Below, one piece after another: positions 3,859 to 18,041 of a DNA stretch of 36,049 nucleotides. The translations under genes were made by a program, and so were the position numbers. Position 1 is the first letter of the stretch. Each line of letters opens with the position of its first letter. The notes beneath the pieces are model-generated. The model saw only the letters and a list, made by a program, of their open reading frames with translations. It was not told the origin of the DNA and did no database searches. The stretch is from Capsulimonadales bacterium (lineage in GTDB: Bacteria > Armatimonadota > Armatimonadia > Armatimonadales > Armatimonadaceae): contig JANRLW010000122.1 of assembly GCA_033762295.1 (NCBI GenBank), forward strand, positions 1 through 36,049, written 5' to 3'.

Positions 3859-4347
3859 ATCGACAGTACGCTGAAATACCTGGCCGACGTCATTTCGGCC
3901 TATACGATCAATCCCGTTCTGCTCGCCCTGATCGCGCAGGAGCCGTTGCTACATCCGCAGGCGACCGCACGGGAACGTTTCCGCATCACCGCCGCGTTCT
4001 GGGGACGGTCCCTTCTCGGACTGGGCGTCGCCGTAGCCCTCGCCGAACTGGGTAAAGCGACCGAGGTCTGGCCGGGCCACCCTCTCTTTCCGAGCGGACA
4101 CACCACCTTTGCCATGTCCGCGGCCACCTGCATCGTACTTCAGCGCGGAAAAGGCTGGCTCTGGCTCCTCGTGCCGATCGTTGGCCTGATGGGCGTCTGT
4201 CTCGTCTACGGTCAATGGCATACGCCGGACGAGGTCGCCGGCGGTCTGGTCGTTGGGAGCGTCGTTCCCCGACTTCTTTGGAAGCTCAGCACACTTCCCT
4301 TCGTCCGCCGGACCGCCCGGCCTGTTTCCGCCGATCTTCGGGTATAA
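3859..4347 (+). CDS. PAP2-superfamily membrane protein (minimal, degenerate motifs)
   Basis: FPSGH motif and H-x3-E (WHTPDEV), several TM helices. Start uncertain: track gives TTG 3946, but the frame is open back to an ATC at 3859 lying 8 nt after AGGAGG. Confidence 0.75.
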   Translation: MDSTLKYLADVISAYTINPVLLALIAQEPLLHPQATARERFRITAAFWGRSLLGLGVAVALAELGKATEVWPGHPLFPSGHTTFAMSAATCIVLQRGKGWLWLLVPIVGLMGVCLVYGQWHTPDEVAGGLVVGSVVPRLLWKLSTLPFVRRTARPVSADLRV

Positions 4348-4378
4348 CAGGCCGAAACCAACTGTTCGGGAGACTGTC

Positions 4379-5734
<1,356 letters not shown>

Positions 5735-5791
5735 TCGGAAGGAGCCGTCGTGCCCCTCCCGGAAAACCGTCGTTTTGCATAGGGCGGACGC

Positions 5792-5821
5792 TTGACGAAG
5801 AGTGGTGATAAATGTTAAAAT
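5792..5821 (+). promoter_or_regulatory. sigma70-type promoter upstream of the candidate ncRNA
   Basis: TTGACG (5792-5797)-N18-TAAAAT (5816-5821) with extended -10 TG. Confidence 0.7.
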
Positions 5822-5824
5822 GTC

Positions 5825-6157
5825 ACTGCATCTGAAGGCATCCCCCAGTTGCTCCACCGAACCGTTTCGGCCTTGTGTCGTAAGGAGACGAGAGTAATGT
5901 TAGGACGGCGCGGGTGTAATCTTAACTCCGGGAGGTGGTGGCTAATGGTTCACAGTCATAGTCTCCGGGGGGGTCTCGCGGGTTAGTTTTAGCCCTCGGC
6001 TCGGCCTGCTCCTGTGACCGGTCGGAACGCCCGGCGTTCCGCGCCGATTACGTGAGGTTGTCGTATGACCGTTTTGGGGTCATGAACGAAACCCAGGGGC
6101 GAGCCCCCTCGAACGTGAGACCCCGGTAGCCCTGCGCATCCGGGGTCAGCGTGTAGT
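5825..6157 (+). ncRNA. Candidate large structured non-coding RNA (~330 nt), family not identified
   Basis: Own promoter; ends complementary (5825-5835 with 6146-6157); nested helices 5970-5980/6114-6124, 5998-6002/6101-6105, 6008-6014/6094-6100; several internal hairpins; no long plus-strand ORF. Confidence 0.65.
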
Positions 6158-6192
6158 TCTTCCGTTCCCTCTCCTTGTTCCGCTCTTCGACA

Positions 6193-6201
6193 TGCTATAA
6201 T
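6193..6201 (+). promoter_or_regulatory. Extended -10 promoter for the hypothetical gene/priA
   Basis: TGCTATAAT, a perfect TGn-TATAAT. Confidence 0.6.
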
Positions 6202-6259
6202 GTCCGATACCGTCCGCCATTACCGGCGTGACCCTCCACGACACGGAGAGCAAAACATC

Positions 6260-6763
6260 ATGACCGATTTTTCTCCCTCGCGTAATGTCGCCTATGCCCG
6301 CGTCTGGACGGCGGCGGCAACCCCGGTTCTGCCCGCCGATCTGGCCGAAAACCTGTACGGGCGAGGATTTATGCCCGGTTTCACCGACCCGGAAGGTAAA
6401 AACGCTCCCCTGATGGAAGCCGGTCTGGCCGAAGCGGTCTTCGCGGTCGGCAGCGACGGTTACCGGGTCGTCAACCTGACCTCCTCGCGCGGCGAAGGGT
6501 GTCGCGTCTCCGTCCACCCGTCCGAGGCCGGCGATCTTCCCGACGACTACCTCGCCCGACGCACCGTGCCGCGCCCGCGCCTGTGTTATATCGTCACCGC
6601 CGGCGGCCCGGCCCATAGCGACCGTAACCTCTGCGAGAATATCGCCGAAGCCCTGATGCTGATGACCAACGGCCTGACGGAGATCGGCGGCCTCGGGATG
6701 AAAGGCAATCGCCCGACCCTGCACAATTCGTCCTGGGTCGGCTCGATCAAAACCGTCTCCTGA
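6260..6763 (+). CDS. Hypothetical protein (167 aa)
   Basis: Coding-like codon usage and GGAGAG SD before ATG 6260. No family recognised. Confidence 0.75.
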   Translation: MTDFSPSRNVAYARVWTAAATPVLPADLAENLYGRGFMPGFTDPEGKNAPLMEAGLAEAVFAVGSDGYRVVNLTSSRGEGCRVSVHPSEAGDLPDDYLARRTVPRPRLCYIVTAGGPAHSDRNLCENIAEALMLMTNGLTEIGGLGMKGNRPTLHNSSWVGSIKTVS

Positions 6764-6800: not shown

Positions 6801-9386
6801 GTGTCCATGGTCGATCCCTCCCCGCCCGTCGCCGATCCCCGTGAACTGACCCTGTTCGCCGCAGTCGTCGTCGGGGTTGACGCGCCCGGATTGCGCCAGC
6901 CGTTCACCTACCGGGTCCCCGACTCCCTGCGTCCCCTGCTCGCGGTCGGTACCTGTGTCGTGGTGCCGTTCGGCTATCAGGAGGCGATCGGGTTCGTTCT
7001 CGCCCTGTCCGAACGCGCCCCGGACCATCTTGAAGCGGAAACGATCAAGGATGTCGCCGGTCTCGTCACCGGCGAAGGCGCGCACCTGCCGGACGCCGTC
7101 CTGAAAACCGCGCAATGGATGTCGCGGAACTACCTCACCGATCTGGCGCTCTGCGTCCGTACCGTCGTTCCCGACGCCCAGACCGCCCATATCCATCGCC
7201 GTTACCGATTGGCGCCCGACTGGGCCGAATGCTGGCAGGATCGCCTGGCGGAGATACGAACCGCCACCCATCGGGATGTCGTACGGGTTCTCGGGGAACG
7301 CCCCGAACGGGCCGGAACCGAGGCGCAGATTGCCGACGCGCTGAACGGCGCGAAGCTGACCTCCCCGCTTTCCCTGCTTCGACAACGGGGCGTGCTGATC
7401 GACGAATGGCGGGTCGACCCGCCCAAAATCGGGGCGAAGCAGGTAAAAGCGATCCGCCTCCTTCCGAACTGGGACGAAGCCGAAAGTATCGCCGCCACCT
7501 GGGAGGTCGCCCTGGCCGGAGCGACCGACAGGGAACGGAAAAGCCTGGAAGGGCGCGTTCGACTGCTTCGCACGCTGATCGAATCGGGGGGTGGGCCGAT
7601 CCCGACCGCCGAACTGCTGGCCCGGACGGACGCGACCGCCGTTCACCTGAAGAAACTGGAAGCCGGGAACCTGGTCGAAACCGAAACGATCACCCTTCGG
7701 CGCAAGCCGTTCAAACTGGCGGGCGGCGCGGCGGTGCCACCGATGCCGACCGGCGAGCAGACGGCTGCCGTGGAGGCGGTCAAACAGCGACTGGACGGGC
7801 GCGAGGCGAACGTCGTCCTGCTCTACGGCGTCACCGGGTCCGGGAAGACGGAGGTTTACCTGCGTTCGATCGCCGAGACGCGCCGTCGGAAAAAAACCGC
7901 CCTTGTCCTGGTGCCGGAGATCGCCCTGACCGCGCAGGTGATGGACACGTTTCGCGCCCGGATCGGCGATCGGGTTGCGGTGCTGCACTCGGGGCTCTCG
8001 GCGGGGGAGCGTCGGGATGAATGGCAGAGGATCGGACGCGGCGAGGCGGACGTGGTCGTCGGGGCGCGTTCGGCGATCTTCGCCCCGCTGGAGAAGGTCG
8101 GCCTGATCGTCGTGGATGAGGAGCACGAAGCGTCCTACAAGCAGGACGCCGCGCCACGGTACCATGCCCGCGATGTCGCCATCGCCCGCGCTCGCGCGAC
8201 CGGGGCGACCGTTCTCCTCGGTTCGGCCACCCCGGCGATGGAATCGTTTTACCGGGCGGAAGCGGGTGAATGGGGCTTTTTACCGCTGCGGGAACGCGCC
8301 CTTTCCCGCCCGCTGCCGTCCGTGCAGATCATCGACCTGCGGGAGGGGTATAAGAAAGGCGATCCGCCCGGTATCTTCGCGCCGCCACTGATGGAGGCCA
8401 TAACCGACCGCCTGGCGAAACGTGAGCAGACGATTCTGTTTCTGAACCGTCGCGGTTACGCCCAGTTCCTGCTCTGCCGCGATTGCGGTTATACCACCCG
8501 CTGCCCGCACTGTGACGTCTCCCTCACCTTCCATTCCCGCGCCCGCCGCCTGATGTGCCATCACTGCGGTTTCGAGAAGGGTGCCCCGTCCGTCTGTCCC
8601 GTCTGCACCGGGGATCGTATCCGCCCGTTCGGCCTCGGCACCGAACGGATCGAAACCGAGGTTCGCGCGTTGTTCCCGGACGCCCGGGTGTTGCGGATGG
8701 ACCGCGACACGACGCAGCGGAAGGACGCCCACCTCTCGATGCTCAAAACGTTCCGCAACGGCGACGCCGATATTCTGATCGGGACCCAGATGGTGGCGAA
8801 GGGCCTGGACTTCGCCGGGGTGACGTTGGTCGGGGTCATCTCGGCGGATACCGCTTTGAATATGCCGGACTTTCGGGCGTCCGAACGGGCGTTTCAGTTG
8901 CTGACACAGGTTTCCGGTCGGGCGGGACGCGGTCGTAAGCCGGGCCATGTCATCGTCCAGACATTCAATCCGGAGCATGAATCGGTCGCGGCGGCGGCGG
9001 AGCACGATTACGAGACGTTCTACCGGCAGGAGATCGGCAACCGCCGGGAACTGGGATATCCGCCGTTCACCCGCCTTGCGAACATCATCGCCCAGGACGA
9101 GGACGGACGGCGGGCGGAGGCCGCCTTGCGTTCGCTGGCGGGCTTCCTTGGCGGCGGTTCCCGGTTGCTGGAAGGTCCGAAGGTCGGCGGGGACGACGAT
9201 CTTCAGGTGCTCGGTCCCGCTCCCTGCCCTCTTTCCCGGCTGCAGGAACGCTACCGCTGGCATCTGTTGTTGAAAGCCGGGGACATCGATACGCTCCGCT
9301 CCCGCATCCGCGCCGGCCTCGCGCAACTGACGGCCTCCGAACGCTCGCTCCTCCACATCGACATCGACCCGATGAGCCTGCTTTAG
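6801..9386 (+). CDS. priA: Primosomal protein N' (replication restart helicase)
   Basis: FTYRVP N-domain, GVTGSGKTEVY, VDEEHE, four CxxC Zn ligands, TQMVAKGLDF, QVSGRAGR, C-terminal DIDP. Start may be ATG 6807. Confidence 0.97.
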   Translation: MSMVDPSPPVADPRELTLFAAVVVGVDAPGLRQPFTYRVPDSLRPLLAVGTCVVVPFGYQEAIGFVLALSERAPDHLEAETIKDVAGLVTGEGAHLPDAVLKTAQWMSRNYLTDLALCVRTVVPDAQTAHIHRRYRLAPDWAECWQDRLAEIRTATHRDVVRVLGERPERAGTEAQIADALNGAKLTSPLSLLRQRGVLIDEWRVDPPKIGAKQVKAIRLLPNWDEAESIAATWEVALAGATDRERKSLEGRVRLLRTLIESGGGPIPTAELLARTDATAVHLKKLEAGNLVETETITLRRKPFKLAGGAAVPPMPTGEQTAAVEAVKQRLDGREANVVLLYGVTGSGKTEVYLRSIAETRRRKKTALVLVPEIALTAQVMDTFRARIGDRVAVLHSGLSAGERRDEWQRIGRGEADVVVGARSAIFAPLEKVGLIVVDEEHEASYKQDAAPRYHARDVAIARARATGATVLLGSATPAMESFYRAEAGEWGFLPLRERALSRPLPSVQIIDLREGYKKGDPPGIFAPPLMEAITDRLAKREQTILFLNRRGYAQFLLCRDCGYTTRCPHCDVSLTFHSRARRLMCHHCGFEKGAPSVCPVCTGDRIRPFGLGTERIETEVRALFPDARVLRMDRDTTQRKDAHLSMLKTFRNGDADILIGTQMVAKGLDFAGVTLVGVISADTALNMPDFRASERAFQLLTQVSGRAGRGRKPGHVIVQTFNPEHESVAAAAEHDYETFYRQEIGNRRELGYPPFTRLANIIAQDEDGRRAEAALRSLAGFLGGGSRLLEGPKVGGDDDLQVLGPAPCPLSRLQERYRWHLLLKAGDIDTLRSRIRAGLAQLTASERSLLHIDIDPMSLL

Positions 9387-17872: not shown

Positions 17873-17953
17873 GGGCGAGTGGTGAAACGGCAGCCACGCT
17901 GGTCTTAGGAACCAGTGCCGGAAGGCGTAGGGGTTCGAATCCCCTCTCGCCCA
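17873..17953 (+). tRNA. tRNA-Leu (anticodon TAG)
   Basis: Acceptor GGGCGAG/CTCGCCC, anticodon arm CTGGT-CTTAGGA-ACCAG, long variable arm, GGTTCGAATCC T-loop; CCA not encoded. Confidence 0.95.
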
Positions 17954-17963
17954 TTCTCCAGGA

Positions 17964-18041
<78 letters not shown>

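Follow-up and report, generated by a model that had tools for sequence, protein, structure and literature searches.

The 36,049 nucleotides (nt) of DNA that we analyzed ("the window": contig JANRLW010000122.1 of a Capsulimonadales bacterium, phylum Armatimonadota) contain, at 5825-6157 on the + strand, a real and previously undescribed stand-alone small RNA gene. It belongs to a new RNA family, which we propose here as the Armatimonadota mini-ORF RNA (ORF, open reading frame). The element can be described equally well as a small RNA gene or as a highly structured mini-mRNA. Judging from where its homologs are found, the RNA is ancient in the Armatimonadota, and its conserved sequence features suggest that it probably works by engaging ribosomes rather than in the manner of 6S RNA. 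Stand-alone mini-ORF RNAs are poorly understood as a class.

A stand-alone RNA gene

A first-pass annotation, made from the sequence alone, had pointed to a structured, stand-alone RNA of about 330 nt at this locus. The sequence words that it quoted are all where it placed them, and the promoter that it proposed, TTGACG-N18-TAAAAT with an extended -10 element, is indeed present at 5792-5821 (+). The -35 box of this sigma-70 promoter is at 5792-5797, the 18-nt spacer ends in TGT, and the -10 box is at 5816-5821. It scores 10 of 12 matches and has the TG, and it is the sole promoter-like site in 5400-6600 (shuffled sequences give 0.1). From its position, we predict that transcription starts at about 5825-5829. 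All of the homologs that we inspected have a TTGAC-N17-TAnAAT promoter directly upstream and, as predicted from the sequences of the relatives, every copy inspected has its own promoter and terminator. Together with neighboring genes that are unrelated from one genus to the next (see below), these features uphold the description of the locus as a stand-alone RNA gene. The claim that the + strand encodes a structured RNA also stands: 5825-6157 folds with a predicted energy of -145.7 kcal/mol on the + strand (z = -2.62, with none of 100 shuffles as good), versus z = -0.60 on the - strand, where 29 of 100 shuffles are as good.

The RNA ends in a terminator-type hairpin. This feature extends over 6113-6163 (+), with the hairpin itself at 6113-6152: ACG...GACCCCGG (6119-6126), a loop, CCGGGGTC (6140-6147)...CGT, and then the T-poor tail GTAGTTCTTCC. 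The relatives have a good hairpin plus a T-run, with GCTTTT after the hairpin. The 3' end in the window is uncertain, because the tail is T-poor and a terminator scan made no call at the window's terminal hairpin.

The size of about 330 nt holds for the window's genus and one sister genus (g1 and g2). Elsewhere the RNA has its ancestral size, about 175-200 nt; the copy in the window reaches about 333 nt because a 5' domain (5825-5917) and an internal insertion were added in these two genera. The 5' extension (5825-5917, +) contains the words CCCCCAGTTG, CCGTTTCGG, and AATGTTAGGA, which are conserved within g1 and g2. It is absent from all other homologs, whose promoter directly precedes an ATCTCAA-type leader. 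The first-pass annotation also proposed that the two ends of the RNA pair with each other. They do so in the minimum-energy fold of the single sequence, but in a consensus of five sequences the 5' extension folds on itself instead.

The insertion (6009-6075, +) became apparent from a blastn search with 5780-6200, which matched 17 of the 24 other genomes of the same family in just two blocks (about 5896-6008 and 6074-6126). These conserved blocks adjoin in the other genera, so 6009-6075 is an insertion. A hairpin that had been noticed at 6020-6049 does form in the five-sequence consensus, but it lies within the insertion and is shared with the one sister genus only. In the window (at 6062-6085) and in one sequence from the sister genus (L002), the insertion carries ATGACC, which can pair with a loop-exposed GGTCAT that is otherwise invariant. 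This potential pairing may mask the conserved GGTCAT loop in these species. Without the additions, the conserved part of the RNA is a core of roughly 130 nt (5918-6112) plus the terminator hairpin.

There are hints that the RNA is expressed. A few words of the stretch recur in thirteen RNA runs. Of four runs that we compared, three metatranscriptome assemblies (soil, wetland, and moss) each contain one short contig (229, 183, and 357 nt) with a homolog. These contigs cover relatives of 5846-6015, 5894-6010, and 5894-6108, and the 229-nt contig begins at the equivalent of about 5844-5846. The short contigs are consistent with a discrete and abundant small transcript.

Distribution in the Armatimonadota

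We searched for homologs with two covariance models. Model R1 was built from 18 sequences of the window's family (alignment A1), after removal of L019 and L020, which represent L007 and L003 a second time. Model R2 has 129 positions that cover the core only, and was built from 29 sequences of both Armatimonadia families; a spurious minus-strand row and a weak row (L121) were excluded. The window matches R1 at 138.9 bits (5918-6158) and R2 at 103.7 bits (5918-6112).

With R1, 31 of the 32 genomes of the window's family each gave a single full-length match, no more, and the genome without a match is an 89%-complete assembly. R1 proved too narrow for the sister family, where it found 4 of 39 under strict filters; a pattern scan (see below) and R2, which found 7 of 7, showed that the RNA is present there. 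One other match to R1 (L057, G030:C1:3737910-3737985, 25.4 bits) is an unrelated palindromic element, hairpin-rich and highly symmetric, that is flanked by inverted repeats. Across 151 sampled genomes of Armatimonadota, R2 found one full-length match in each of 38 genomes. These include all 13 sampled genomes from the two Armatimonadia families (f1, 6/6; f2, 7/7) and genomes from at least eight families beyond them: f19 (3/3), f22 (5/6), f26 (3/3), f27 (3/4), and f8 (5/8), and single or few genomes in f6, f11, f15, and f39.

Beyond the phylum, our survey consists of a narrow pattern run over 185,579 species genomes plus the searches of Rfam, as the covariance model was applied within the Armatimonadota only. 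The pattern matched 21 times, and 20 of these matches are in records titled Armatimonadota or members of the phylum (Armatimonadetes, Armatimonadales, Armatimonadaceae, Armatimonas, Capsulimonadaceae, or Capsulimonas). The 21st, in a metagenome-assembled genome of Desulfobulbus, has a coding-looking context and appears to be a chance match, so we did not use it. In metagenomes, the pattern found 72 loci, of which 63 match R2 with E ≤ 0.001. The other nine look like chance matches and were not used (this inspection left aside the truncated locus L206).

The first-pass annotation had also supposed that the RNA was specific to its lineage, and this was correct. The RNA is absent from Rfam. At gathering scores, the whole window matches Rfam 15 only at two tRNAs (17873-18041); these are adjacent genes on the + strand, at 17873-17953 (54.5 bits) and 17970-18041 (72 bits). 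At E ≤ 10, the region 5650-6350 contains nothing but a chance fragment of sul1 inside the next gene, and 17 homologs that we compared to Rfam did not match any family at E ≤ 5. In full-text searches of the literature, no paper came up that deals with small or structured RNAs in the Armatimonadota.

For the comparisons below, we used two alignments: A2, with 43 sequences, and A7, with 75 distinct rows from the phylum and from metagenomes. Both were fitted to the model, which favors the structure. A third alignment, from MAFFT (A3), was not used: in it, the 3' strands of the sister family are out of register.

A conserved mini-ORF

What the first-pass annotation overlooked is a Shine-Dalgarno (SD) sequence, a start codon, and a 13-codon frame, all within 5930-5986. 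The matches to R1 and R2 begin at 5918 with the leader and SD region (5918-5943, +), which comprises the ancestral leader AATCTTAACTCC and the SD region GGGAGGTGGTGGCT. The mini-ORF (5945-5986, +) begins with ATG, has 13 codons (MVHSHSLRGGLAG), and ends with TAG at 5984-5986. Within the SD region, GGAGGTG (5932-5938) is Watson-Crick complementary to the 3' tail of 16S ribosomal RNA, which is GGCTGGATCACCTCCTTTCT as read in two relatives. The SD can form 7 contiguous Watson-Crick pairs with this tail in the window (11 if G.U pairs are included) and 9-11 in the relatives.

These features are conserved across the RNA family. All 43 sequences in A2 have GGAGG or GGGGG, then an in-frame start codon 7-12 nt after the SD (ATG in 24 sequences and TTG in 19), then 11-13 codons, and then a stop codon at the same structural site (TGA in 17, TAG in 14, and TAA in 12). 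In A7, 74 of the 75 distinct rows pass a script that looks for the ORF (all with ATG and with 10-13 codons, 67 of them with 11), and the remaining row (L143) passes by eye. The pattern that was used to scan the metagenomes put no constraint on the ORF. Over all copies, the spacing between the SD and the start is 7-14 nt. One weak match (L156) keeps the homologous stop only if it starts with GTG. Within A2, TGG never replaces the stop codon, though pairing in the hairpin that holds the stop would survive through G.U pairs. Also, insertions and deletions between the start and the stop are of whole codons, in A7 as well as in A2. What is clearly under selection is a frame that can be translated and that has a fixed geometry.

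Two aspects of the SD region caught our attention for other reasons. First, in the window (5930-5940) and in most homologs outside the sister family, it reads GGAGGUGGUGG, which has four GG tracts with 1-nt spacers and is a potential two-tier G-quadruplex that would overlap the ribosome-binding site. Second, the SD is followed by GGUGGCU, whose conservation throughout the phylum has no obvious explanation.

A conserved fold that includes the mini-ORF

The conserved parts have the same order in the various copies. The promoter is followed by a leader that is about 12 nt long, and then by AAGGAGGUGGUGGCU (GGGAGGUGGUGGCU in the window), ATG or TTG, the frame, and the stop hairpin GGGCUAA/UUAGCCC. 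After one or two variable hairpins, the 3' half has a hairpin with the loop GGUCAUGAA, then the 3' strands of the long-range helices H2 and H3, and finally a GC-rich hairpin and the T-run. The consensus fold thus has a 5' hairpin and a long-range helix that closes a multi-branch junction, with the terminator hairpin standing apart from both.

In the window (all on the + strand), the 5' hairpin is H1 (5931-5966), a G.U-rich hairpin in which the SD region (5931-5942) pairs with codons 4-8 (5955-5966) and the start codon is in the loop. This is the side hairpin that the first-pass annotation had placed at about 5925-5974. The 5' strand of H2 (5967-5973) is GGGGGGG, encodes codons 8-10, and pairs with 6104-6110; the 5' strand of H3 (5975-5979) is CTCGC, encodes codons 11-12, and pairs with 6099-6103 (GCGAG). 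The 3' strands of both helices thus occupy 6099-6110. In the stop-codon hairpin (5980-5995), GGGTTAG, which is the last sense codon plus TAG, pairs with TTAGCCC. A small junction hairpin (GGC-TCG-GCC, 5998-6006) varies among families, as seen in the alignments and folds. The hairpin at 6077-6094 displays a near-invariant loop word, GGTCATGAA (6078-6086), that the sister family and distant families share. The window's copy has every feature that we propose for the RNA family: the leader, the SD, the start, the 10-13 codons, the stop within the 5' arm of its hairpin, H2 and H3 with 5' strands from the ORF, the GGUCAUGAA loop, and the terminator.

Covariation supports this fold. In A2, 94.5% of the cells in paired positions can pair, as compared to 79.0% in shuffles (0 of 500 shuffles reach the observed value) and at most 54.5% if the partners are slid. 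In A7, 88.0% of cells are paired versus 74.5%, and 15 of 16 pairs have changes on both sides. The low values with slid partners disfavor the idea that the pairing is an artefact of fitting the alignments to the model. H2 and H3 covary strongly. In A2, 10 of their 12 pairs changed on both sides, and the types of pairs seen in H3 (alignment positions 69-73 with 207-211) include CG/GC/UA and UA/GC/UG. Across the phylum (A7), compensatory changes affect 6 of the 7 pairs in H2 and all 5 pairs in H3. All 11 pairs in the terminator helices changed on both sides as well (A2). The helices of H1 are paired in 86-95% of cells in A2 with few double changes, and the pairing of the SD in H1 is specific to the window's family; both the sister family and distant families have lost it.

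As for the stop hairpin, all 7 standard pairs are possible in 48 of 50 homologs, and it covaries at position 1 (GC/AU) and at positions 2 and 4 (CG/UA). The GGGT of the window's stop hairpin can alternatively pair with ACCC at 6091-6094, and the equivalent pairing between GGGC and a GCCC just before the 3' strand of H3 covaries in both A2 and A7. Because the GGGC segment has two covarying partners, two pairings that exclude one another are conserved around the stop codon.

H2, H3, and the stop hairpin thus take their 5' strands from the last eight codons of the mini-ORF. Partition-function folds leave the start codon mostly unpaired (P of 0.6-0.8).

The first-pass annotation had instead proposed nested long-range helices that form a rod, and had suggested that homologs be checked for covariation. 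Covariation was found, with the covarying helices paired in 94.7% of cells, but the rod was not. Among the 43 homologs, the proposed helix GGGGTCTCGCG/CGTGAGACCCC (5970-5980/6114-6124) is paired in just 58% of cells and GCTCCTG/CAGGGGC in 44%. GGCTC/GAGCC fares better, at 83.6%, yet it competes with a helix that has more support.

The RNA had also been suggested to be an untranslated RNA of the 6S or Ms1 type that binds RNA polymerase. 6S RNA binds the RNA polymerase holoenzyme and Ms1 binds the core enzyme, and the 6S fold is a rod with a large central bubble and paired ends. Like 6S, the mini-ORF RNA is a single-copy, housekeeping-like small RNA of similar size (about 180-330 nt) with a strong promoter. 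Also, the Rfam model for 6S (RF00013) finds no 6S RNA in this genome or in five other genomes of the family. However, the consensus fold of the mini-ORF RNA is a multi-branch one, with neither a rod with a central bubble nor a stem that joins the ends; an RNA of the 6S type would have no use for the conserved SD, start, and stop; and RF00013 matches neither the window (at the gathering score, or at E ≤ 10 in 5650-6350) nor the 17 homologs (at E ≤ 5). Furthermore, RF00013 matches 47 of 101 sampled genomes of Armatimonadota, and at least nine genomes (G025, G038, G074, G089, G102, G114, G126, G149, and G160) have both a 6S RNA above the Rfam cut-off and the mini-ORF RNA. Because canonical 6S shares genomes with it, the mini-ORF RNA cannot be the lineage's 6S, and we give the idea of an RNA polymerase-binding RNA almost no credence. 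As a separate observation, no 6S RNA was detected with RF00013 in any of six genomes from the window's family (G000 and five others), while four of five further genomes of Capsulimonadaceae have one. The 6S RNA of the window's family is either very divergent or lost.

A possible role in engaging ribosomes

We consider it slightly more likely than not that the RNA is a stand-alone, structured mini-mRNA that acts in trans by engaging ribosomes, in the manner of the RNA rreB (see below). A 30S subunit or a 70S ribosome would load on the exposed start codon and read to the fixed stop, and to do so it would have to melt H1, H2, H3, and the stop hairpin. Because codons of the ORF form the 5' strands of H2 and H3 and the stop lies in a covarying hairpin, occupancy by a ribosome and the folded state should be mutually exclusive. 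The RNA would toggle between two forms. Without a ribosome it would be folded, with the invariant GGUCAUGAA loop presented by the junction that H2, H3, and the stop hairpin enclose; with a ribosome bound it would be unfolded, and it would refold when the ribosome departs. Its conformation or its stability could then report on ribosome loading, so that it would be a reporter or a modulator of translational capacity. Alternatively, the RNA's own stability and activity might be set at the ribosome. Either way, the peptide of 11-13 residues would be a secondary product at most.

Several observations weigh against this proposal. We infer both the translation of the mini-ORF and its binding by ribosomes from the sequences. 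In the window's family, the SD is largely sequestered in H1 (its mean probability of being unpaired is 0.23, as compared to 0.50 in distant families). A strong SD is also not unique to this locus: AAGGAGGTG occurs 27 times in the genome (versus 57 for a reversed control), and the window's copy forms only 7 contiguous Watson-Crick pairs. Synonymous sites in the ORF are nearly frozen (Ser is AGT in 77 of 78 cases and Gln is CAA in 55 of 55), and in principle, the start and the stop could be kept for some reason other than translation. Assembled contigs cannot show the ends, the strand, or the level of a transcript, and DNA may contaminate RNA libraries. Finally, even with lax filters, the RNA was not found in any of the five genomes from f5, f7, f16, f17, and f10, so it is not universal in the Armatimonadota.

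If the frame is translated, then the peptide itself might be what matters, with the RNA structure serving to tune translation or to stabilize the message. Such an ordinary micro-protein gene would account for the SD, start, frame, and stop that are conserved across the phylum. The peptides do have a consensus, M-x-[HDYN]-S-[QL]-R-G-[DG]-x-x-G, and of the 95 distinct ORFs, 78-85 retain Ser at position -8, Arg at -6, and Gly at -5 and at -1. Also, Leu at position -7 is encoded by CTC, TTA, TTG, or CTA, and Arg by CGA, CGG, or AGA. But the near-invariant synonymous positions for Ser and Gln point to constraint at the level of the RNA, and because synonymous sites are almost as frozen as the others, conservation of the peptide cannot be separated from conservation of the RNA. 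The C-terminal half is free to change along with compensatory changes in the helices: the window's family has L-A there, its sister family has G-E, and R-A is found elsewhere. And the RNA continues past the stop codon for about 100 nt of covarying and conserved sequence, which is far more than a micro-gene needs. We consider a functional peptide of 11-13 residues to be unlikely as the main product.

The frozen synonymous sites could instead mean that nothing is decoded at all. Under this explanation, the RNA would bind a protein or a ligand, and the words that look like an SD, a start, and a stop would, for example, mimic an operator and titrate a translational repressor or a ribosomal protein. 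The invariance of the loop words GGUCAUGAA and UUUUAGCC and of CAUAGUC would fit with this, as would the partial sequestration of the SD. This leaves unexplained, however, why an in-frame start is always found 7-14 nt after the SD, why TGG never appears even though all three stop codons can replace each other, and why the insertions and deletions between start and stop are of whole codons. We view an undecoded RNA as quite improbable.

A more elaborate version of the ribosome-engaging mini-mRNA is that it is a ribosome-operated switch with a housekeeping role in Armatimonadota. The ribosome would unzip the helices and thereby expose or hide the GGUCAUGAA/UUUUAGCC junction for a partner in trans. 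It might pause at the structure-embedded stop while the exit tunnel holds the nascent chain with its conserved S-Q/L-R-G, and the cell would read its own translational capacity through the conformation of the RNA. We offer this version tentatively, as a possibility that we would not bet on. If it is true, then the switch would be a new functional class beside tmRNA, 6S RNA, the signal recognition particle (SRP) RNA, and RNase P RNA in Armatimonadota.

Similar RNAs in other bacteria

The closest analogue that we know of is rreB, a small mRNA of 165 nt with its own promoter and terminator and an ORF of 14 codons (Hahn et al. 2016, RNA Biol 14:1353, PMC5711450). Experiments showed that rreB binds 30S subunits strongly, is translated weakly, and has a stability that depends on its start codon, and it has no known function (PMC5711450). 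The hallmark of rreB, in the same source, is a perfect complementarity of 16-17 nt to the 16S tail that reaches into the start codon (PMC5711450).

As rreB and rreR are described there, they resemble the mini-ORF RNA in being free-standing, about 165-190 nt long, and equipped with a sigma-70-type promoter and a terminator of their own; in having a conserved tiny ORF (14-18 codons there versus 10-13 here), an unusually strong SD that is partly buried in a conserved hairpin, and non-ATG starts in part of the family; and in being conserved across a large clade. The mini-ORF RNA is likewise a free-standing transcript with a predicted promoter and terminator, and its ORF is shorter than 20 codons in 43 of 43 rows (A2) and 75 of 75 rows (A7). 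On the other hand, there is no sequence relationship between the two, and rreB and rreR are from Alphaproteobacteria. The SD of the mini-ORF RNA has 7-11 Watson-Crick pairs and a normal spacer of 7-14 nt, as opposed to at least 16 nt of complementarity, and neither an ORF that supplies the 5' strands of covarying long-range helices nor a stop codon in a hairpin is described for rreB. As the SD of 16-17 nt that defines rreB is absent, the mini-ORF RNA is an analogue of rreB and rreR and not a member of their family.

Other small RNAs are less similar. Dual-function small RNAs such as SgrS/SgrT, RNAIII/hld, and Spot 42/SpfP are also small, terminated, and structured transcripts with a translatable short ORF. 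These base-pair with known mRNA targets, occur in narrow lineages, and have ORFs that are not integral to a conserved fold, whereas for the mini-ORF RNA we know of no target or seed. We also considered tmRNA, which has a tRNA-like domain and a tag frame that lacks an SD or a start. The mini-ORF RNA has both an SD and a start and does not match RF00023, and a tmRNA of its own is encoded elsewhere in the genome, on contig C68 (152.5 bits), so we rejected this identity. The SRP RNA and the RNase P RNA are, like tmRNA, encoded elsewhere in the genome.

Neighboring genes

In the window, the RNA gene lies between pgi (4253-5734) and an ORF without a Pfam match that ends at 6763 and is followed by priA (6801-9386). 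The ORF before priA, on the + strand, starts at 6200 or at the ATG at 6261 and has no counterpart beside the RNA in the relatives. The extended -10 element TGCTATAAT that had been noted for this gene at 6193 is confirmed (6193-6201). A 523-codon open frame on the - strand (4286-5857) is antisense to pgi; we take it to be a shadow ORF of GC-rich DNA because the sense frame carries the PGI domain.

These neighbors bear on whether the RNA is a cis-acting leader, akin to an attenuator or a riboswitch, that controls read-through into downstream genes, which in the window would be the hypothetical gene (6261-6763) and priA. Attenuators of the trpL, hisL, and pheL type have a short ORF with a good SD, overlapping helices, and an intrinsic terminator. 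The mini-ORF RNA shares this layout, with helices that overlap the ORF and alternative pairings around the stop codon. Also, in the window, the tail is T-poor, no terminator was called, and the next genes are on the same strand. In two distant families (f22, locus L136; f19, locus L138), greA follows the RNA on the same strand, after the terminator and a gap of about 200-350 nt, and in L138 greA is followed by a gene for a class II lysyl/aspartyl-type tRNA synthetase (lysS). In the coordinates of these loci (- strand), the RNA is at 1501-1630 in L136 and 1501-1613 in L138, and the genes that follow it are at about 615-1094 in L136 and at 735-1274 plus 1-675 in L138. We did not see the linkage to greA in the window's family.

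Nevertheless, the genes beside the RNA are unrelated between genera, and none is conserved throughout. When we compared pgi, the hypothetical protein, and priA to the loci of 19 relatives with tblastn, we found nothing outside of the window's own locus, and none of the three adjoins the RNA in any of 17 relatives. The downstream gene is often convergent: within the window's family, a gene for a SAM-dependent methyltransferase (Methyltransf_25) lies downstream on the opposite strand in five loci (L027, L031, L045, L047, and L049), and rsgA, whose product is a GTPase for 30S maturation, does so in five more (L028, L033, L037, L043, and L048). This convergent setting is probably the ancestral neighborhood, which was lost in the window's genome. 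Furthermore, the relatives end in a good hairpin and a T-run, there is no run of regulatory codons, and the next gene in the window has its own TGCTATAAT at 6193. No antiterminator is conserved, as the sole candidate (5970-5980/6114-6124), besides its low rate of pairing, changed on both sides in just 3 of 11 pairs. Given that there is neither a conserved downstream operon nor a conserved antiterminator, we reject a classical attenuator, and we find a cis-acting leader of any kind very improbable.

Implications

The Armatimonadota are a widespread phylum from soil, freshwater, and plants, and to our knowledge, there is almost no molecular biology on them. Because the mini-ORF RNA is single-copy and strongly promoted, predates the divergence of the phylum's families, and appears in metatranscriptome contigs, it is probably part of their core RNA repertoire. 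Its design is unusual: the strands of its covarying helices incorporate a conserved translation start and stop, which makes decoding incompatible with folding. The C-terminal residues vary along with the compensatory changes in those helices. The covariance model is ready for use in genome annotation, where this locus now appears as an empty gap. We gathered about 130 natural sequence variants (43 in A2 and 75 distinct ones in A7, with some overlap), and as there are cultured hosts (Armatimonas and Capsulimonas), the function of such RNAs is directly testable. Seen alongside rreB and rreR, the mini-ORF RNA suggests that mini-mRNAs which engage ribosomes recur among bacteria, as a class of RNA that still awaits explanation.

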